Shown: positions 40,847-64,000 of the stretch, piece after piece
Numbering within the stretch: the stretch's first letter is position 1
How the letters are laid out: each line of letters begins with the position of its first letter
Source of the DNA: a virus
Length of the DNA: 64,000 nucleotides
IMG/VR virus record: IMGVR_UViG_3300025875_000001
Span: 1 to 64,000 of that record
Reading direction: 5' to 3' (one strand)
Translations under genes and position numbers: made by a program
The notes under the pieces: model-generated
What the model saw: the letters and a program-made list of their open reading frames with translations, nothing else
Told to the model about the DNA's origin: nothing
Databases searched by the model: none

Positions 40847-42427
40847 TTAGGCGTTTGACCAGCTATAAGAGTACAAGTCCCAAGCATTTACTAACTCAGT
40901 TACGCCAACTGTTGCATTATCTTCTATAATATATTTTCTGCCACCTGTATAAGCCCTATATATTCTTTCTACCTGATCACTTCCTATATCATTAGCATAC
41001 AAATTTACACTACCTATTTGACCTATTAAATCATTAGAGCCTGAACCTACAGAGGCAGAACCTACAAAAATTTGAGCATTCGTACCAGATCCAAACAATC
41101 CTGTAACATGTACCCATTCACCACTCTCAATAGAATGGTCAACTCCTAATTTACCATTTATATAAACAACATTACCGTTTGTTTCTAATGCACCATAACG
41201 GACACGCAAGTATTCACCTGTTGTTGTCGAATATATATATGTATTTTTTAGATCATCTAATCTAAACCACATATCTATACCATAAACAAGGGATTGACGA
41301 GCAGCTTGAACTTCCGAATTTATTTCTATACGACCATTATTCATTCGAGCCCCGCGCAATTCATTATATTCTATTTGATCAGTAACTTTTTCGCATGTAA
41401 CTATATCACCGACAAGAGTAGCATCTCTAATTAAAAGCTCGTTATTATATTCAGAAGTAGTATATAAAACAACCTCTAACTTATTTACAGTAGCCGGACC
41501 ATTAAAAATTATTCTAAAGTCTATATTATATCCAGGTATACCATTATTTACACCCGGTATAGTTTTAAGCTTTTCACAACGAGTCCATGTTTGTCCATTG
41601 TCTAGACTAGATTCAACAACAAAATCGCCAATGCCATACCAATTAATCTTAGATCTTTTAACTTTTTCTGTAAAAGGTACAGGAACGATACCTTGCCACA
41701 TTCCGCCAACAGTTCCAGTAATTGAATCTGTAATAGATACTTCTTTATAAATTCCATTAGTCCACGACTCATCAACCCCCCAAATTTTTTTTATTTCCAC
41801 TGCATCTGGTTGATCTTCAAAGTTATAAATTAATGCACCTAGGTCAGAAAGATTGGCGGTTATTGATGGTATGTCTCTACCCATACGATAATGTTTATTA
41901 ACTACATTAGCTACTAGGGGAGCATCATAAAAAGCAATTCCATCTATTGCAACCCTACCTGAACCCGCGCCAGCTACAAAATTCGACTCATCTAGCAAAA
42001 AAATGCCAGGCTCTATAGATATTTGATCATATAGTCTACCGTTAATATACAATGATATTGCATCTACACTATACTCTGCCACCACATGCAGACATTTTCT
42101 TTCATCATAATCATATTTTATCGTATATGATCCTGTTGACAACTTTACTGTAAATTCTATACCTTTGTCCCAATAAATACCACCGTTGCCCCCGGCCAAA
42201 ATTGAAACTTTTTGTGAAGTATAAGGTAGGCACCAAGCTTCTAATGAGGTTATTTGATCACTTTTTTCTACAGAGAATGCATTTGACACAAAAGTTTTTT
42301 CTACGCCATTGCCTACTATAATAGAATTTTTATTGCCAGCAATAATAGGCGCAACATTTTTAGCTGCATCATCGGAAAAATCTGTAGAAAATATAGGCGA
42401 ATCTACTCTAAGTTGATCTATATACAT
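40847..42427 (-). CDS. LamG/concanavalin-A-like domain virion protein
   Basis: SLEAW...HVVAEY...ISLYING and second EWVHVT LamG-like repeat. Confidence 0.7.
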   Translation of the reverse strand: MYIDQLRVDSPIFSTDFSDDAAKNVAPIIAGNKNSIIVGNGVEKTFVSNAFSVEKSDQITSLEAWCLPYTSQKVSILAGGNGGIYWDKGIEFTVKLSTGSYTIKYDYDERKCLHVVAEYSVDAISLYINGRLYDQISIEPGIFLLDESNFVAGAGSGRVAIDGIAFYDAPLVANVVNKHYRMGRDIPSITANLSDLGALIYNFEDQPDAVEIKKIWGVDESWTNGIYKEVSITDSITGTVGGMWQGIVPVPFTEKVKRSKINWYGIGDFVVESSLDNGQTWTRCEKLKTIPGVNNGIPGYNIDFRIIFNGPATVNKLEVVLYTTSEYNNELLIRDATLVGDIVTCEKVTDQIEYNELRGARMNNGRIEINSEVQAARQSLVYGIDMWFRLDDLKNTYIYSTTTGEYLRVRYGALETNGNVVYINGKLGVDHSIESGEWVHVTGLFGSGTNAQIFVGSASVGSGSNDLIGQIGSVNLYANDIGSDQVERIYRAYTGGRKYIIEDNATVGVTELVNAWDLYSYSWSNA

Positions 42428-42433
42428 ATTTTT

Positions 42434-42461
42434 ATTCTACTGCTATACCTTAGAAATGCAA
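42434..42461 (-). promoter_or_regulatory. putative promoter for leaderless LamG gene, fused to upstream hairpin
   Basis: TTGCAT-16-TAGAAT, 6 nt before ATG, no SD. Confidence 0.5.
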
Positions 42462-42613
42462 GAACCCCAGCCTGTAAGTGATTACTAAAATCACCTGTAA
42501 GCCGGGGTCTTGCTGTAACTATCTCATCCTAAGGTAGACCAATTCGCACGAATTGACCCAACAACTATCAGTCTGTCCATCGGCCCACAAGCCGTGCAGT
42601 CCCCGAAGGTTGT
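42455..42613 (-). ncRNA. candidate structured small RNA of unknown family
   Basis: own consensus promoter, several stems, terminal long hairpin, no ORF. Confidence 0.55.
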
Positions 42614-42619
42614 ATGTTT

Positions 42620-42648
42620 ATTTTAACCTAAGAATAAAATTATGTCAA
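42620..42648 (-). promoter_or_regulatory. near-consensus sigma70 promoter overlapping the endolysin stop codon
   Basis: TTGACA-17-TAAAAT. Confidence 0.8.
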
Positions 42649-44201
42649 TCTTCTATCTTCCACCCACCGTCACTATCTACATAAATTGTAGATTTTTCAA
42701 ACTTCTGTGACCAGCTTCCATCTTCATGCTGCTTTGGCTCTTCCAAAGGATATCCTGTATATCTGCTGCGAGAATAATCTCCAAATGACCATACGTCAAA
42801 TGCTGGTCCCCAACTAGCTACCGCCAAATTAGTTCTAGGATGCCAATTGATTGCACCTCTTTCAAAGTTAACAAATGCTCCCCCGGCAGAATCAGCAAGG
42901 TCGTTTGTAGTAGGCCATCCTAAAGGACTACGAGGACCACCTAAAGCTACATATTTGTCAAGAATTCCCCCGACAAGATAATAACCTTTATCCTTACCAT
43001 CATTTTTATAAAAAATGGTTCCTCCTGTAAACCTTTGTGACCAACCAAGGATATCAGCTCCGTCTGTTACAGGAACTTCATCCTCTACAGGCCAGCCCAA
43101 GAATCCCTGCTCATAACCATGAGAAGCCCAAGCCTTTCCAATACCACCACGAACCACATAAGCCTGAGGTGTGCCAGCCTGATAATAAAGAGAACCGTTT
43201 TCGAACCCTTGCATCCATCCACCTTTTACCGCAAGCTCATCGCGCACCGGAAATCCCAAAATACTTTTTTCTACACCTAATTTTTCATAACGAGTAGCCA
43301 ATGCTCCCTGTACGGCAAATGAACCAGTTTTTGCAGTACCAAGTGCCATTCCTCTTTCAAACCTAGAAATTCTTCCTCTACCATCACCAGTTGGGTGCTC
43401 ATCTGTTACTGGATAACCCATTGCTGAATTTTCATATCCAACTCTCTTATAAGCATCTAAAATTCCACCTTGAACAGCATAAGCTTCTGGCAGACCGGCC
43501 TTCGCCCAAATAGAAATACCCGGACCGAATCCCTGTGTCCAACCATCTTTGAGCTTAATTTCAGCTGCTGATGCTTTGTCTACAATATTTAACTTGGTAG
43601 CCTTAGCATTTATCGATCCATATACAGGATAGGATATCTTAGCAGGTACCACAAGATCTGGACCTTTCAAAAGACTAGATACTTTAGCTTTCAGTGCTCC
43701 ATAATCCATACCTGATGTATCGACCTTACGTCCCCTAGGAAGTGCATAATCTGCGTGGCGAGGCATCCAATTAATGTCTCTACCTGTCTCTTGCAATATA
43801 GATGCACATAACTTTGCGTATGAATCTAATTGAGCTGCTGACCAACTTGCAACAGATCCATCACTTTCTGCTTCAATCCCGGCAAAATGACCATTTCCAT
43901 CAGTTACACCATTCCAATTACCTGCACCAGAATGCCAAGAAACTTTTTCGTTAATGCAATATATGGTTCCTGAACGTCCCAAACCATACATACACAAACT
44001 ATTCTTCAAATCAGAACGACCATCACGAACAACTCTTAAAGTTGGATAGTCTCCTGCTGCTGATCTAGAACTACCAGTGTGGTGCAACATAGGGCCATAG
44101 ATGACTCCCATTTGCCCCTGGTTATGTCCAGACCACGCTTCTACTACTGGGTAGCCAGTTCGTCTAGCTACTTTTAATACAATCTCTCTTGACCAACCCA
44201 C
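42645..44201 (-). CDS. endolysin: N-acetylmuramoyl-L-alanine amidase (Amidase_2) with LGFP repeats
   Basis: MLHHTG, WHSGAG, GIEAE, HADY...RKVD amidase motifs; repeats MGYPVTDE, LGFPVRDE, LGWPVEDE, LGWPTTND. Confidence 0.92.
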   Translation of the reverse strand: MGWSREIVLKVARRTGYPVVEAWSGHNQGQMGVIYGPMLHHTGSSRSAAGDYPTLRVVRDGRSDLKNSLCMYGLGRSGTIYCINEKVSWHSGAGNWNGVTDGNGHFAGIEAESDGSVASWSAAQLDSYAKLCASILQETGRDINWMPRHADYALPRGRKVDTSGMDYGALKAKVSSLLKGPDLVVPAKISYPVYGSINAKATKLNIVDKASAAEIKLKDGWTQGFGPGISIWAKAGLPEAYAVQGGILDAYKRVGYENSAMGYPVTDEHPTGDGRGRISRFERGMALGTAKTGSFAVQGALATRYEKLGVEKSILGFPVRDELAVKGGWMQGFENGSLYYQAGTPQAYVVRGGIGKAWASHGYEQGFLGWPVEDEVPVTDGADILGWSQRFTGGTIFYKNDGKDKGYYLVGGILDKYVALGGPRSPLGWPTTNDLADSAGGAFVNFERGAINWHPRTNLAVASWGPAFDVWSFGDYSRSRYTGYPLEEPKQHEDGSWSQKFEKSTIYVDSDGGWKIED

Positions 44202-44471: not shown

Positions 44472-47447
44472 TTAATTCGCTGATCCAACTATCTCGCAAG
44501 CTGAGGAAGTACACGCAAGCGTTTGACTTCCTGTTGTATTATCCTCTGCTTCGAACAGACTCAACATATTCCAGTCAATTTCTTTTGGCATATCGGCTTG
44601 AAACTGATTATATCCAGACTCATCGGTATCCTGATATGGTGCTTGCTGATAAGTATGCTCAGAATATGGTAGGAAACTAATACCACCAACATGCTCCCAA
44701 TTCTTGTACACCCAATTAGCGACTTCAATCCATTCATTTTCACGAACATTAATAGTTACACTTGGGTTGTGCTCAGTCCAATTGAGTTTGTACGTCTTCC
44801 AAAATTCTAGATGATCGATGGCACTCAACTGCAACCTAGTTACAGCGCCTTCTGGTGCCTTCTGAGGAAAATAGAACACTGTCGTGCCTTCTGGGTTCAT
44901 AACGTCTGGCTCATTTGGTACACCCTGAAACTTCATAAATTCAGTTAGTGGGTCCTTGTTGTCCTGACGGACCGACCTGATGTAGTAATCATTGTGCCAA
45001 GGGTGCATACCTGAACTTGTTGCTGTTAGCTGACTTACTGTTCCACTTGGCTTTACAGTTGTAATTGCAGCACTACAGTTGATTCCCATAGCGTCTGCAA
45101 TTACCATATTGGCAGTTATAGCTGTAAGACGCATTATATTCAATGCTTTAGCTAATTCATCCGTGCCTTCACGGCCACTCATCAACTTATTACCAAATTG
45201 ACCTGTCAAACTAACGCCAAGCAGACGCTCTTCTTCGCAATTATCTTTCCAGATCTTACGCAAGTACCTAAAATTTGTAAAGCTTGATTGAATTGTTCCT
45301 AAAATTGAAGCAACATTGACCTTATTAGACAATGAAGTAATATCATCGTCTTCTTCTATGATAACTTCTGTTAAGTTACAGAATTGGTATGGACGTAGCT
45401 TAATCTCACCACAATTGTGTGTATAGATTCCATTGGCATCAAATGCGTTTACGTCTGGAACGATAGCATCATATACATCTTCTATACCCTCTGGCTCTAT
45501 AGAAAGCACCTCAGCCTCAAATTTAGATTTATACATAGACCTAGTTCCAGATAGCATATCCGCAAGCTTCTTAGCCTTAGCAGAATCAACAAATCCAATT
45601 TTGTTCGCAAATACACCAATTGACTCTCTAGAAATGATCACCTCTGACAATGCCTGACAATAATATGGAGACATTTCCCTATTTGAATCTGGCAACATTT
45701 TAACTCCGGCATCTCTACGAGCATAAATTTTACCAAGGATTCCCAATCTACCCAGCATTCGCTGTACGCCGCCCAAATTATCTAGCGAAATGCTAGTAAG
45801 CCGGACAGACCGTCCTTTAATACGATCGCCTTGAACACTGCCATCGGCATCAAAGTAACCCCTAAGAAACCCGTGATAAAAATCGCTAGAAGCAGACTCT
45901 ATTTCCTTAGTTACTCGCTTGTTATCAAGTAAACCGAATTGACGTGCCCACTCGGTTACAGTACGAGATGAAAGCCTCCACTTTTTCTCTTCACCTACCT
46001 GAGTTTGCAACTTGAACTCAGCATCATCAACAACAGATTCTACCTTGTGCTTGATATCTAGCCCATTTTCCCAAACGTCAATCAAGGCGCGAGAACCAGA
46101 AACACAGCCATCGCCTACAAGCAAACCAAGAACATACCCTTGATTCTCTGTACCAGGTCCACCCCAAGTGGCTCCATTATTATTGGATAATACTAAACTA
46201 TCACCCGGCAAAATATCTGACAGACTCTTCCAACCATCGGTAGTCATAAATCGGTGATCTTGCGTAGCCCTAACGGTGTGGCCAAATCTTGTATTGATCC
46301 TAAATACCTGCTTGGTGCCTGTCTTAAAAAAGCCCGTTGAATCGTTCAACTTACCATTAAGCATAAGCTTAGTCTCTACGTTAAGAATGTCAGATATTTG
46401 CCTAGGCCCATCTTCTGTAATTACCCAAGTCTCTCCGGTAAGGCATGGATTCAACCCGGCAATTTTGCTAGTGTCTCTACGTGGTGCATTCTTGTTGCTT
46501 TTCAAATCTGCCATGTTGACAATTCCACGCTCACCGGACTTAGACTCATAAAGGCTGGTCCACTCACGCAAGAATTCACCAATGCTCGGCTTTGCGTAAT
46601 ATGTTGCAGAGTTATTGGCAAGTCTGCGGTGACCGTAATCTTCCCACCACGCTCCACTCTTTGCCTTTGCCATATCAAAGCTATCTAAATCACTCATTGA
46701 AATAAGAGCTGAGCGCCTTACTCCACCTACTACAACGACATCACCAATTTTACACATAATATCGTGTACTTCGATATCTGTTAACTGGCGACCGGCGGCT
46801 TGCACAAAGATCTTGATCGTAAAATCAAACAAATCAATAAGTGGTTGTGGTCCCGATGACCTACCGCCAAATGTCTTTAGCCTTGCTCCGGCTGGCCTTA
46901 GCTGCGTCGGGTCGATTACTGGAATCTGACCATTGACCAAGTGATTAATCAATTGCCTGTAAGCCTTGGCCCAACCTTCTTTTGAGTCACCCACTACTAC
47001 AACATCTTTAACCTGCCTGAAAGCATTAGGCATTACTGGTAGCTGACAAACATACTTTGTCTCTACGCTAAATCCAAGACCGGTTCCATTCATTAGGATA
47101 TATAAAGCTTCATCAAAAGATCTTAATGAGTCTACTGGCATAAAACTACAGTTATACCCGGCGACATTGCTGCGCTCCAAAGCTGGACCGGCTGTCATAA
47201 GTGCTCTCATACTTGGCATAACCTTATGCTGCAAGATCATATCTGCGGCCTCTGTCCAGAAGTCATTACTAATTGCACCAGGATAATTCTTGTCCATATG
47301 ATCTGCCATAAAATCGATATAACGATTTACAGTCTCAGACCACGTCTCTCTTCTATTTTCTTCTTCTAACCATCTTGCATATCTAGACTTCGCAATGAAG
47401 CCTCTATAGGGATCTGTAATTGATCCCTGTTCGTCTATAAACGACAA
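44472..47447 (-). CDS. nrdJ: class II (adenosylcobalamin-dependent) ribonucleotide reductase precursor with intein
   Basis: VMPSMRALMTAG, YNCSF, GGVRRSALIS, NP-CGEI split by intein, TTVKPSGTVSQ, C-terminal CTSSAC. Confidence 0.93.
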   Translation of the reverse strand: MSFIDEQGSITDPYRGFIAKSRYARWLEEENRRETWSETVNRYIDFMADHMDKNYPGAISNDFWTEAADMILQHKVMPSMRALMTAGPALERSNVAGYNCSFMPVDSLRSFDEALYILMNGTGLGFSVETKYVCQLPVMPNAFRQVKDVVVVGDSKEGWAKAYRQLINHLVNGQIPVIDPTQLRPAGARLKTFGGRSSGPQPLIDLFDFTIKIFVQAAGRQLTDIEVHDIMCKIGDVVVVGGVRRSALISMSDLDSFDMAKAKSGAWWEDYGHRRLANNSATYYAKPSIGEFLREWTSLYESKSGERGIVNMADLKSNKNAPRRDTSKIAGLNPCLTGETWVITEDGPRQISDILNVETKLMLNGKLNDSTGFFKTGTKQVFRINTRFGHTVRATQDHRFMTTDGWKSLSDILPGDSLVLSNNNGATWGGPGTENQGYVLGLLVGDGCVSGSRALIDVWENGLDIKHKVESVVDDAEFKLQTQVGEEKKWRLSSRTVTEWARQFGLLDNKRVTKEIESASSDFYHGFLRGYFDADGSVQGDRIKGRSVRLTSISLDNLGGVQRMLGRLGILGKIYARRDAGVKMLPDSNREMSPYYCQALSEVIISRESIGVFANKIGFVDSAKAKKLADMLSGTRSMYKSKFEAEVLSIEPEGIEDVYDAIVPDVNAFDANGIYTHNCGEIKLRPYQFCNLTEVIIEEDDDITSLSNKVNVASILGTIQSSFTNFRYLRKIWKDNCEEERLLGVSLTGQFGNKLMSGREGTDELAKALNIMRLTAITANMVIADAMGINCSAAITTVKPSGTVSQLTATSSGMHPWHNDYYIRSVRQDNKDPLTEFMKFQGVPNEPDVMNPEGTTVFYFPQKAPEGAVTRLQLSAIDHLEFWKTYKLNWTEHNPSVTINVRENEWIEVANWVYKNWEHVGGISFLPYSEHTYQQAPYQDTDESGYNQFQADMPKEIDWNMLSLFEAEDNTTGSQTLACTSSACEIVGSAN
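45414..46445 (-). mobile_element. intein (344 aa) with LAGLIDADG homing endonuclease
   Basis: starts CLTGETW, ends GIYTHN before Cys+1; LGLLVGDG and FLRGYFDADG motifs. Confidence 0.95.
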
Positions 47448-61896: not shown

Positions 61897-62358
61897 TTAG
61901 TCCAGGTCGTCGCTGTCACAGTCGCAGACATCGGCGGCACAGACAGGGAATGCCCTACTGCCGATATTGTAATCAGCGGTGCGCGGGTACTTAGTGAGAA
62001 AGTTTGCCTCTCCCTCATAGCGTGCAAATGCGGAAGTGATGACAGCGTGGGGATAGGTACGCATAACCTCCCGCATCACCCGGCCGTATGCGTGCCAGCA
62101 TGCCCACGGTCCCCGCCGACCTGATGCACTACGTCGGGCGCCCTCACCCTTGCTGCTCACAGCAATGATCCGACCCCGGAATCCGTATCCGTTAGCGGTA
62201 CTCACGTAGCCGCTACCGTCCTGGTGCACGGTCCGAGTGATCTTGCCAATTGGTCCGGCGTCCGGGTGCACGATCACATTGCCGCCGTATTCTGCGCTCA
62301 CCTTCTCAACAATTGCCCGGACAGTGGAGAACTCGACACCCTTGCCACGAACGTACAT
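61897..62358 (-). CDS. hypothetical protein
   Basis: AGGAGG SD; 153 aa. Confidence 0.75.
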   Translation of the reverse strand: MYVRGKGVEFSTVRAIVEKVSAEYGGNVIVHPDAGPIGKITRTVHQDGSGYVSTANGYGFRGRIIAVSSKGEGARRSASGRRGPWACWHAYGRVMREVMRTYPHAVITSAFARYEGEANFLTKYPRTADYNIGSRAFPVCAADVCDCDSDDLD

Positions 62359-62397
62359 TTAAAGCCTCCTGCTAGTGTATGTATTGGATATGTCAGT

Positions 62398-62461
62398 TGA
62401 CAATCCATGACTTCCCCTAACAAAGCCTAGCGGCCACATTAGGGGAAATCAAAGCGTGTCA
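62398..62461 (-). repeat. conserved intergenic hairpin motif, copy 1
   Basis: TGACACGCTTTGA-stem-TCATGGATTGTCA. Confidence 0.75.
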
Positions 62462-62782
62462 AACACTCATACGCCGAATGCGGGTTGCGGTCTTTCGGTA
62501 TGCCGCCCGCGCCTCTCTCAGCGTGTCGAACGTCTGCCAGTCTGCCCGTGTTCGCCCGCCATCTTCCGTTTCTACCCATCGGGGATAACGTCCGCTGTCA
62601 TCGAAGGTCTCCCCCGGAATGCGGGTGTGAACGTGCCAGCATCCATCATGCCGCATCATAACGGCAGGACTGTCACCGCCGTAATAATCGCTCGATCCGT
62701 CGGCGGGCGTTGACTCCAGATATCCGCATCCGAGCGCATATGCTGACAGTTCGCCCGTCTTAATCGTCATGTCAGTGTTCAT
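62459..62782 (-). CDS. hypothetical protein
   Basis: AGGAGG SD; start MNTDMT. Confidence 0.7.
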   Translation of the reverse strand: MNTDMTIKTGELSAYALGCGYLESTPADGSSDYYGGDSPAVMMRHDGCWHVHTRIPGETFDDSGRYPRWVETEDGGRTRADWQTFDTLREARAAYRKTATRIRRMSV

Positions 62783-62818
62783 GTCTTTCCTCCTGCTATT
62801 TGTGTCGGATATGTCGTC

Positions 62819-62872
62819 TGACATTCCATGAAAGCTAGCTAGGTTTAATTAGCTAGCTTTCAAAGCGTGTCA
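62819..62872 (-). repeat. conserved intergenic hairpin motif, copy 2
   Basis: TGACACGCTTTGA-stem-TCATGGAATGTCA. Confidence 0.75.
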
Positions 62873-63094
62873 GTCGCAGAGGACGTCGGGGTGACAAGAC
62901 GTGTGGTCTCCGGAGTCGTGACGCTCCAAAATGGCAGCGCCATAGGGGTCTCCGATATCGCCGTGGCCCTGGCAGTAATCGATTATCTGCCCACATGCCG
63001 GGCAGGATGAAACGAATTCGATTTCGTCGCCGTCCCACGTAAGGTCATCGGCAGGCCAGTCGGCAGAAACCGAATAGTCATCAAAGTAGGTCAC
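62870..63094 (-). CDS. small Cys/His metal-binding protein
   Basis: CPACG...YCQGHG...H..CH..C; GTGA overlap. Confidence 0.65.
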   Translation of the reverse strand: MTYFDDYSVSADWPADDLTWDGDEIEFVSSCPACGQIIDYCQGHGDIGDPYGAAILERHDSGDHTSCHPDVLCD

Positions 63095-63381
63095 AGTGTT
63101 TCTCCATCCGTGAAAGTGATCGGGTACTCGACCCAGCCGTTGTGGTCGAACGTCTTGTGGGAGAAGTGCAGGGCGATGGCGTAGGAAATGACCATTAGCG
63201 CCAGGGCGACGGAGACGATGAGCGTCCAGTCAATCTTTCGGCCCACCATCTCTCCCGTGCCAAACGTTGCGCGCTTGCTGCGATCTACTGTCGTTGCTGT
63301 ACATCGGTTGACTCCTATTGCTAGTTGGATTGCACGGTCACCATGGCACATAGGGCAATAATTGTTAATCCTATGTGCCAT
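63091..63381 (-). CDS. hypothetical membrane protein (start uncertain)
   Basis: one transmembrane helix LIVSVALALMVISYAIAL. Confidence 0.55.
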   Translation of the reverse strand: MAHRINNYCPMCHGDRAIQLAIGVNRCTATTVDRSKRATFGTGEMVGRKIDWTLIVSVALALMVISYAIALHFSHKTFDHNGWVEYPITFTDGETL

Positions 63382-63394
63382 GGAAACTAGGCAG

Positions 63395-63694
63395 TCACCA
63401 CCAGGTGCGGATCAAATTGTCGATGGTCGGATCGAGGTTGAGTGTGTAATCGGACACCACCTCATCGGGGGCATTGCCGAGCACGAAGAACACCCAGCCC
63501 GCACCATTCCCGCCGGGCAGCGTCACATGTAGGTGCGCCATATCCACGGCCATGATTGCTTCGACCGCTGCCGTTTCCGTGGAAACCTTGGTTTCCTCCT
63601 CACCATCGTTGACGGAGTAGAGCACGTGCCCGGACTTGCGCAGTGCCCGGATGACCTGCCGGATGCCAGCAGAGTCGGTAGTGGGTGCAGTCAT
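63395..63694 (-). CDS. hypothetical protein
   Basis: AGGAG SD; start MTAPTT. Confidence 0.7.
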   Translation of the reverse strand: MTAPTTDSAGIRQVIRALRKSGHVLYSVNDGEEETKVSTETAAVEAIMAVDMAHLHVTLPGGNGAGWVFFVLGNAPDEVVSDYTLNLDPTIDNLIRTWW

Positions 63695-63704
63695 TGTCTT
63701 TCTC

Positions 63705-63803
63705 CTATCGGTTAGCGGTCGGTCGGTTGGCGATGTCTGCTGCGATGCGCTGTGAGGGGCACCCACACGTTGCCCGGTGATGCTTGGGACAGTTGACGGG
63801 CAT
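63705..63803 (-). CDS. tiny Cys/His peptide (32 aa)
   Basis: Manual translation MPVNCPKHHRATCGCPS...; GAAAGG SD. Confidence 0.5.
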   Translation of the reverse strand: MPVNCPKHHRATCGCPSQRIAADIANRPTANR

Positions 63804-63825
63804 TGTCTTTACCTTTCGTCGTGTC

Positions 63826-63877
63826 TAACTTTCCATGAAAGCCACTAACGTTAATTAGTGACAATCAAAGCTAGTCA
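63826..63877 (-). repeat. conserved intergenic hairpin motif, copy 3
   Basis: TGACTAGCTTTGA-stem-TCATGGAAAGTTA. Confidence 0.7.
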
Positions 63878-64000
63878 GAATAGACCATCATTCCATTCCG
63901 ACTCTGTGAGCCGCAGCCAGCGGGACGATTCGCCGTTGTTGAGATTGGTCAATCTGACCCATACCCACCCGGCGTCGAAAGCTTTATCCACCTCCACCAA
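63875..64000 (-). CDS. hypothetical protein, C-terminal part (window edge)
   Basis: open frame ...WVWVRLTNLNNGESSRWLRLTESEWNDGLF*. Confidence 0.55.
   Translation of the reverse strand: MVEVDKAFDAGWVWVRLTNLNNGESSRWLRLTESEWNDGLF

Follow-up and report, generated by a model that had tools for sequence, protein, structure and literature searches.

Trans-encoded base-pairing small RNAs (sRNAs) of bacteria and phages are transcribed from their own promoters, present an exposed seed and end at a Rho-independent terminator, and loop-presenting antisense RNAs are known from plasmids, such as CopA/CopT of R1 and RNA I/RNA II of ColE1. Known means by which phages act on host ribosomes include proteins, tRNAs and nucleases. 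Here, we describe a candidate RNA gene located on the minus strand in the gap between an endolysin gene and a LamG-like gene of IMG/VR virus record IMGVR_UViG_3300025875_000001, the first 64,000 nucleotides (nt) of which were analyzed as one stretch (the window). The conserved blocks of this RNA family, as read from the sequences of its members, are the reverse complement of domain IV of 23S rRNA (approximately positions 1908–2010, Escherichia coli numbering). A first-pass annotation had proposed a structured sRNA at this site and had overlooked the antisense complementarity, which runs from helix 69 through about helix 72.

Like trans-encoded sRNAs, the gap RNA is short and non-coding, has a promoter and a terminator hairpin of its own and carries conserved complementary stretches that are partly unpaired; some family members also appear to be derived from a 3' untranslated region (UTR) or processed from a longer transcript. 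However, its complement is rRNA and not mRNA, and consists of at least three collinear blocks over ~100 nt instead of a single seed. As in CopA/CopT and RNA I/RNA II, the antisense RNA is structured, and pairing could start between an exposed stretch and a target loop (here, the helix 69 loop), with subsequent spreading of the duplex. These plasmid RNAs are encoded in cis, have full complementarity and regulate the replicon that encodes them, whereas the gap RNA is trans-encoded, partly complementary and apparently aimed at a housekeeping RNA of the host. A literature search revealed no paper on a phage RNA antisense or complementary to rRNA, and rRNA is nowhere mentioned in a 2025 review of phage-derived sRNAs (PMC12197685). 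What is new here is a promoter-bearing actinophage RNA with more than 100 cultivated carriers, covariation support and a fit to a host-specific variant of helix 69.

As a reference for E. coli, we used a segment in which 84 of 84 bases agreed with the 23S rRNA annotated in each of the 5,426 E. coli genomes; numbering was based on that annotated 23S locus and on its known modified positions. Exact antisense matches in the window covered 1910–1917 (the helix 69 loop), 1921–1933 and 1964–1971, giving blocks of 8, 13 and 8 nt. The same regions were matched throughout the family. CUUAGGA, antisense to 1923–1929, was present in every member (UUAGGA being invariant, and UUAGGAUG occurring in all except Coruscant-type phages), and GUGC, antisense to 1964–1967, was invariant in 33 of 33 members examined. 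A match to the loop and 5' stem of helix 69 was also found in every member, in the form of UAGUUAC (antisense to 1910–1916) in uncultured members and of AUAUUAC or UAAUUAC in most Streptomyces isolates.

Additional antisense pieces were lineage-specific, all of them in the correct collinear register. They included CUACCUUAGGA, AUAGUUAC, AUUCGUGC and GAAUU in the window, a 13-mer against 1966–1978 and AGGAAUU against 1937–1943 in contig L124, GAAUUUCGC against 1933–1941 in L123 and L125 (a 9-mer in L123) and a 10-mer against 1980–1989 in L129. Positions flanking the anchors matched the antisense at 55–70%, compared to 25% expected by chance. In L129, the RNA ends and the closing stem sit between anti-1932 and anti-1931, which explains the apparent circular permutation of some members, because the ends are merely placed elsewhere along the antisense. 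The target stretch was 95–100% conserved in plasmid- and chromid-borne rRNA operons of Proteobacteria, Firmicutes and Deinococcus. As expected for an antisense RNA, the significant and conserved complementarity to 23S rRNA is found on the strand predicted to be transcribed.

When E. coli 23S rRNA was used as the target, 19 of 28 members had their best antisense match in this region, and chains of 7-mers from the window did not separate from shuffled sequences (27 observed, shuffle mean 20.8). One apparent mismatch involved the family-invariant GGAUGG, which stands where the E. coli antisense reads GGACCG. GGAUG is the exact antisense of the 3' strand of helix 69 in Microbispora (CAUCC), not in E. 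coli (GGUCC); Microbispora helix 69 reads GGUGGUAACUAUAACCAUCC, and GGAUGG is its exact antisense. With the Microbispora 23S gene (L193), the single actinobacterial reference, the best antisense alignment fell at helices 69–72 in 31 of 31 members (z-scores 2.0–16.1), and the sense-strand control remained at shuffle level. The alignment of the window RNA spanned ~83 nt (z 6.2), starting in the inner 5' hairpin and ending at AUAGUUAC, and that of the L124 RNA spanned ~108 nt (z 17.9). The hybrid predicted between positions 42560–42510 of the window and 23S ~1907–1978 had an energy of -49.0 kcal/mol, compared to -25.1 +/- 3.8 for shuffles (z -6.2), and was composed of three helices with helices 70–71 looped out. 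The pattern was enriched in phages, with 40 matches in viral contigs and 7 in 596 Gb of bacterial genomes, although the viral set was much smaller; six of the seven bacterial matches lacked the other features of the family and look like chance occurrences, and the seventh was the Microbispora 23S gene read backwards. The fit to helix 69, the LGFP-containing endolysin and the Streptomyces relatives described below point to an actinobacterial host of the window phage, despite its low G+C content. The Microbispora triticiradicis scaffold15 that provided the reference (3.5 kb) contained three tandem ~95-nt copies around helix 69 of 23S, with helix 71 shortened in one copy; these tandem pieces are probably an assembly artefact.

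The window is part of a complete 134.8-kb viral genome (G000) with terminal repeats and ~40% G+C. Its LamG-like protein matched only Streptomyces phages of the family Stanwilliamsviridae (~26% identity), and both share the gene order ribonucleotide reductase, endolysin, ~150-nt gap, LamG-like gene, small gene and portal. Using blastn, we detected a cassette of promoter, RNA, hairpin and second promoter at the same position in at least 107 Streptomyces phage isolates; none of these 107 records has an RNA annotated at the gap. The isolate gaps contained a promoter over the endolysin stop codon, the 5' stem, the GUGC element, CUUAGGAUG, UUAC and a G+C-rich hairpin followed by U residues. Promoters overlapping the upstream gene (hexamers with a 17-nt spacer) were TTGAAA-17-TATCCT in Jay2Jay, TTGACG-17-TATAAT in Comrade and TTGACA-17-TACAAT in L124, and all cassette-type relatives had a -10 or extended -10 element (TGnTAnnnT) 6–10 nt upstream of the ATG.

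Homologs with a conserved structure, which the first-pass annotation had suggested to look for in related phages, were thus present, and both the 5' stem P1 and the terminal stem S1 covary. In an alignment of 16 Streptomyces phage isolates, 95.3% of the P1 and S1 cells were paired, compared to 38–49% when the partners were slid, eight pairs were changed on both sides, and the observed covariation score was reached by 0 of 500 shuffles. For example, P1 reads ACAGCC:GGUUGU in some phages and ACGACC:GGUCGU in others (A-U to G-C), and 7 of the 14 pairs in the S1 homolog were changed on both sides. The gene strand corresponds to the folded RNA, because the G-U pairs of its stems would turn into A-C mismatches if the opposite strand were read. 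In Braelyn (L156, 506–907), Tomas (L165, 496 onward) and L115, an HNH endonuclease gene was found exactly between the terminal hairpin of the RNA and the LamG-like gene; each of these HNH genes has its own -10 element, and in Braelyn and Tomas the insertion leaves the RNA unit whole. These variants have an altered block 4, which reads UAUACACACC in Braelyn and UAUAAAUACC in Tomas.

Two pattern scans of IMG/VR followed by inspection revealed ~40 further distinct copies of the RNA; the first pattern was loose, and its 119 matches, mostly due to chance, were sorted by eye. The complete 132-kb contig L124 has the cassette layout and a textbook terminator, and the S1 counterpart is a canonical terminator not only in this contig but also in L123, L125 and L135. 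Other copies differed in their surroundings. In L032, L038 and L072, the RNA lacks its own promoter and trails the upstream gene. In L008, L018, L052, L128, L141, L143 and L146, it is closed by a 13–17-bp stem and lies immediately before a tRNA array. Some copies are located 3' of an hsp20-like gene; L135 (genome G004) has an extended -10 element and a 95-nt RNA, in which the closing stem followed by UUUUUAU is the terminator. The tRNA-linked and hsp20-linked versions had no blastn match in isolate phages.

Four contigs with such displaced copies were examined as a whole. Genomes G001, G002 and G004 have ~30–50 proteins in common with the window genome (portal 48–50% identical), which indicates that the RNA gene has moved within one broad phage lineage; the idea that the tRNA-linked copies belong to unrelated phages was rejected on this ground. 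In G001 and G002, the RNA follows a SpoU methylase gene and an open reading frame (ORF) of 124 amino acids (aa) and heads the tRNA array, the order in G001 being terminase, HNH, small ORF, SpoU methylase, 124-aa ORF, RNA and tRNAs. The tRNA-linked RNA was always 3' of this conserved ORF, itself 3' of a SpoU-family methylase gene. The 124-aa ORF corresponds to phrog_2859, has no Pfam match and ends in ...W.GspF... (L169 15080–15992, which is G001; L008 9090–9464). The window genome has a SpoU gene at 98946–99482 and no homolog of the 124-aa ORF.

Since the RNA occurs at other loci in relatives, a role as cis regulator of the LamG-like gene or head operon is unlikely, and the genomic arrangement identifies the gap RNA as an independent RNA gene and not a LamG leader. 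It had initially been described as a stand-alone element and probably not just the 5' UTR of the next gene, and its conserved promoter, terminator-like hairpin and additional loci in G001, G002 and G004 agree with this description. A predicted promoter, a predicted terminator hairpin, absence of ORFs and conservation, the features of a stand-alone sRNA gene, were all found. Nor is the RNA fixed upstream of the LamG-like gene, as a riboswitch or cis leader would be, and that gene has its own leaderless promoter.

In its layout, the cassette resembles the PR'-6S RNA-tR' unit of lambda and the put/EAR RNAs, in which late genes are immediately preceded by a strong promoter whose short structured transcript runs into a terminator. 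The gap could then be transcription punctuation in cis, in which a terminator and a promoter keep the head operon insulated from early/middle genes (ribonucleotide reductase, endolysin) or a put/EAR-like leader controls read-through. The RNA would be a by-product like lambda PR' 6S. The strong promoter, the short terminated transcript, the late genes in series, the overlap of S1 with the -35 element of the next promoter and the promoterless RNAs of L032, L038 and L072 are consistent with such a role. However, unlike the lambda RNAs, the gap RNA is not tied to one position (it is also found far from head operons, before tRNAs and after hsp20), is followed by a separate leaderless promoter and has conserved bases that are antisense to rRNA. 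In addition, the closing stem of the L135 RNA is itself the terminator, read-through transcripts would be poorly translated because the next gene is leaderless, and a by-product would not be expected to hold 8–13-nt blocks invariant across phages whose proteins are 25–50% identical. We consider punctuation in cis highly improbable. An earlier suggestion, a riboregulator that controls read-through into the head genes, is also not supported, in view of the L135 closing stem and of the tRNA-linked copies, which have no downstream head operon.

The elements of the gap are listed in Table 1. The gap comprises 217 nt from the end of the endolysin gene to the ATG of the LamG-like gene. The promoter reported over the endolysin stop codon is indeed present; it matches the consensus at 11 of 12 positions and is the top minus-strand match within 4.5 kb. 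The transcript was said to be free of ORFs, and no minus-strand ORF of at least 30 aa was found within 42428–42644. The structural elements noted previously (a CUUCGG-type element, the CGGC-UUGUGG-GCCG and GUGC hairpins, the ACAAC/GUUGU stem and a two-part hairpin) could each be located, and their layout recurs in distant relatives; from ~42595 onward, the 5' domain aligns with antisense 23S rRNA as well. The separate promoter of the LamG-like gene was also recovered and is kept in relatives, and its predicted geometry is that of a leaderless mRNA. The gap had a minimum free energy (MFE) of -67.9 kcal/mol, compared to -47.8 +/- 4.5 for shuffled sequences (z = -4.5), and none of 200 shuffles was as stable. 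Hairpin S1 is the probable intrinsic terminator and RNA 3' end, with a U-rich tract that is weak in the window (UUCUUGCAUUUCU). Given this weak tract, the 3' end is probably near 42466–42455 and the RNA about 150–160 nt long; this is a small correction to the previous estimate of ~155–160 nt with a 3' end at ~42452.

Table 1. Predicted elements of the RNA gene and its flanks (coordinates of the 64,000-nt window; all elements read on the minus strand)
Feature	Position	Strand	Remarks
Endolysin gene	42645–44201	-	Amidase_2 and four LGFP repeats
-35 hexamer of RNA promoter, TTGACA	42648–42643	-	Overlaps endolysin stop codon TGA (42647–42645)
-10 hexamer of RNA promoter, TAAAAT	42625–42620	-	17-nt spacer from -35
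Inferred transcription start of RNA	near 42613–42615	-	From spacing only
5' domain (P1 stem and enclosed elements)	42561–42613	-	Predicted fold; P1 covariation
Closing stem P1, ACAAC with GUUGU	42613–42609 with 42565–42561	-	Predicted fold
C(UUCG)G element	~42608–42600	-	Inside P1
CGGC-UUGUGG-GCCG hairpin	42594–42581	-	Inside P1
Hairpin P2, GGUCAAUUC-GUGC-GAAUUGGUC	42558–42537	-	Predicted fold
AUUCGUGC	42553–42546	-	In P2; antisense to 23S 1964–1971
GAAUU	42545–42541	-	In P2; antisense to 23S 1937–1941
CUACCUUAGGAUG	42525–42537	-	Exact 13-nt antisense to actinobacterial 23S 1921–1933 (helix 69 3' strand and helix 70 junction)
AUAGUUAC	42515–42522	-	Exact 8-nt antisense to 23S 1910–1917 (helix 69 loop); predicted unpaired
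Terminal two-part hairpin S1 (GCAAGA / CCCCGGC ... GCUGGGG / UCUUGC) and U-rich tract	42513–42458	-	
-35 hexamer of LamG-like gene promoter, TTGCAT	42461–42456	-	In 3' half of S1
-10 hexamer of LamG-like gene promoter, TAGAAT	42439–42434	-	16-nt spacer; 6 nt to ATG
LamG-like gene	ATG at 42427	-	Laminin_G_3 domain

Helix 69 is the central inter-subunit bridge and contacts tRNAs, release factors and the recycling factor; it projects outward in free 50S subunits and makes up bridge B2a to the small subunit. We lean, without great confidence, toward the reading that the RNA contributes to host take-over by base-pairing with the 23S rRNA of host 50S subunits that are free or still nascent. The roles put forward in the first-pass annotation (decoy, anti-defence RNA or protein-binding RNA) are conjectures, and the data favor base-pairing with host rRNA instead. 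The RNA would be transcribed by host RNA polymerase from the near-consensus sigma-70-type promoter, end at hairpin S1 and act in trans, its body being a diverged antisense copy of domain IV of host 23S rRNA in which selection may have kept three blocks exact, AUAGUUAC (1910–1917), CUACCUUAGGAUG (1921–1933) and AUUCGUGC (1964–1971). The exposed block antisense to the helix 69 loop would dock on the solvent-exposed loop in free or nascent 50S subunits, and pairing would extend along the 13-nt block, reaching the helix 69 3' strand with the adjoining junction and, from there, 1964–1971, leaving helices 70–71 looped out and holding the inter-subunit bridge region in a duplex. The likeliest outcome of such pairing would be that maturation of the host large subunit or subunit joining is hindered; as a guess, the region may instead be shielded from nucleases, such as MazF-type toxins, or the subunit may be marked for another factor. 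The more specific model, in which the RNA uses the helix 69 loop of free or nascent 50S subunits as a toehold to invade helix 69, joining or maturation is blocked or the subunit is marked, and the RNA is tuned to the helix 69 of its host, is offered tentatively, as a possibility that we would not yet call probable.

The predicted structures bear on the order of these steps. The probability of being unpaired was 0.92 for the anti-helix-69-loop block in the window and averaged 0.72 over 29 members, compared to 0.37 over all positions, and AUAGUUAC is a likely first contact point because it is predicted to be unpaired. The strongest arguments for a function are this exposed block, the invariance of the blocks across phages with 25–50% identical proteins and the lineage-specific extensions that remain in register. 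Several observations weigh against pairing with the ribosome. For the window alone, the chain of exact 8-mer matches to E. coli 23S rRNA had a p value of ~0.001, and a comparable chance chain was found elsewhere in the window. All 31 members aligned with Microbispora are mutually related and do not represent independent events, and the assembly that contains the one actinobacterial 23S gene compared has duplicated fragments. In the mature 70S ribosome, the target is for the most part paired or buried, and pairing therefore needs free or nascent 50S subunits. The fold of the window RNA sequesters antisense parts, as AUUC and GAAUU are within P2, and in the MFE structure CUUAGG pairs with a non-conserved downstream CUAAGG. 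There is also no obvious gain for a phage from disabling ribosomes that it needs itself, and part of the complementarity may go back to the capture of an rDNA fragment and not to a present function.

This last point could be taken further, in that a captured antisense piece of rDNA may now be a structured RNA that binds a protein or another RNA and not 23S, its conserved blocks being recognition or tertiary elements. The local structure around the blocks varies (GUGC lies in a loop in the majority of Streptomyces phages and in a stem in Coruscant), it is doubtful whether the target can be reached in mature ribosomes, and some conserved parts have no clear rRNA match. Among the latter is CCUAUGGAAAUGAGUCCG in the P1 loop (alignment columns 19–35), which is invariant in the 16 Streptomyces phages and whose antisense matches to E. 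coli 16S, 23S and 5S rRNA did not exceed 8 nt; its counterpart in L124, the GAGUCCGUGG stretch, aligns with antisense 23S at ~1990–2010. However, the invariant positions coincide almost exactly with those identical to antisense 23S, different lineages keep different extra antisense stretches in register, and no candidate protein partner co-occurs with the RNA (Ro60/TROVE, RNase III and pseudouridine synthase are absent, and SpoU, L7/L12-like and uL24 genes are not common to all carriers). We regard a mere rDNA descendant with another target as unlikely.

With regard to these partners, a Y RNA/YrlA that acts with Ro60 was rejected, as the complete window genome had no TROVE domain and Rfam gave no YrlA match. 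No phage-encoded RNase III or pseudouridine synthase was found in the phages. A guide RNA for the SpoU methylase was also rejected, as SpoU was absent from the RNA carriers Jay2Jay, Comrade, Coruscant, G003 and G006. In five genomes tested, a gene for an L7/L12 C-terminal domain occurred only in Jay2Jay and uL24 in none. Phages of cluster BE1 are reported to carry uL24-like and L7/L12-like genes (PMC12509530), which are not general partners because they are not shared by all carriers. The L7/L12 C-terminal-domain-like gene of Jay2Jay (W01) is located in the terminal repeat (2868–2966 and 124961–125059). A screen for a co-occurring partner protein would be uninformative because G001, G002 and G004 are related to the window genome.

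Pairing with 23S rRNA could also serve protection, with the RNA covering the single-stranded helix 69–71 region of free or nascent 50S subunits against a nuclease or modifying enzyme of a host abortive-infection system. The mycobacterial toxins MazF-mt6 and MazF-mt3 reportedly cut the helix 70 loop at UUCCU/UCCUU, and the hosts are inferred to be actinobacterial. This loop is partly covered in some members (GAAUU against 1937–1941 in the window, GAAUUUCGC in L123 and L125 and AGGAAUU in L124), and the strong promoter would suit stoichiometric amounts. However, the helix 70 loop is not covered in all members, positions 1931–1961 being looped out in the tRNA-linked ones, and the amount of RNA would need to equal the number of ribosomes, which makes protection quite improbable in our view.

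If the RNA indeed pairs with helix 69, phages would have a new means of controlling or disabling translation, in which an RNA attacks or reprograms the host ribosome directly through the RNA of the latter. The idea is directly testable, as more than 100 cultivated Streptomyces phages carry the RNA and have laboratory hosts. For uncultured phages, the helix 69 variant that the RNA matches may also help to predict the host.

We also compared the gap RNA with known RNA classes. The Rfam search by cmscan that had been recommended reached no family: Rfam 15 had no match in the whole window at gathering thresholds, and for 42300–42800 at E <= 10 the best matches were mir-875 (20 bits, threshold 84) and sR10 (17.2 bits, threshold 45), both below threshold. 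No tRNA or tmRNA was detected in the window by ARAGORN. C/D-box and H/ACA sRNAs/snoRNAs of archaea and eukaryotes also have short exact antisense stretches to conserved central rRNA, and the weak match to sR10, a C/D-box model, is in line with this similarity. In contrast to these guides, the gap RNA has no conserved C (RUGAUGA), D (CUGA) or ACA boxes, their partner proteins are absent from bacteria and these phages, and SpoU is absent from many carriers. Box-like letters were not conserved in the family; for example, the GAUGAG of the window reads GAUGGA, GAUGGU and the like in relatives. A riboswitch, a self-cleaving ribozyme (suggested by the apparent circular permutation), a minimal RNase-P-like core, a tmRNA piece, a sarcin-ricin loop mimic, a CsrA sponge and an anticodon-loop mimic were each suggested by short resemblances, and were dropped because complementarity to 23S accounts for all conserved blocks and for the permutation. 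TTAGGATG was rejected as a repeated phage late-promoter motif, with 33 occurrences in the window and 35.9 expected.

Additional features of the window genome are as follows. It contains 33 tRNAs, all at 88–126 kb, including one at 126098–126170 with the anticodon CUA (labelled tRNA-Pyl by ARAGORN), a possible amber-suppressor tRNA; genes of the window are read through normally under code 11. Upstream of the endolysin gene, a class II (B12-dependent) ribonucleotide reductase gene (44472–47447, minus strand) is split by an intein with a LAGLIDADG endonuclease domain. The G+C fraction is 0.56 at 62001–64000, compared to ~0.40 across the remaining window.

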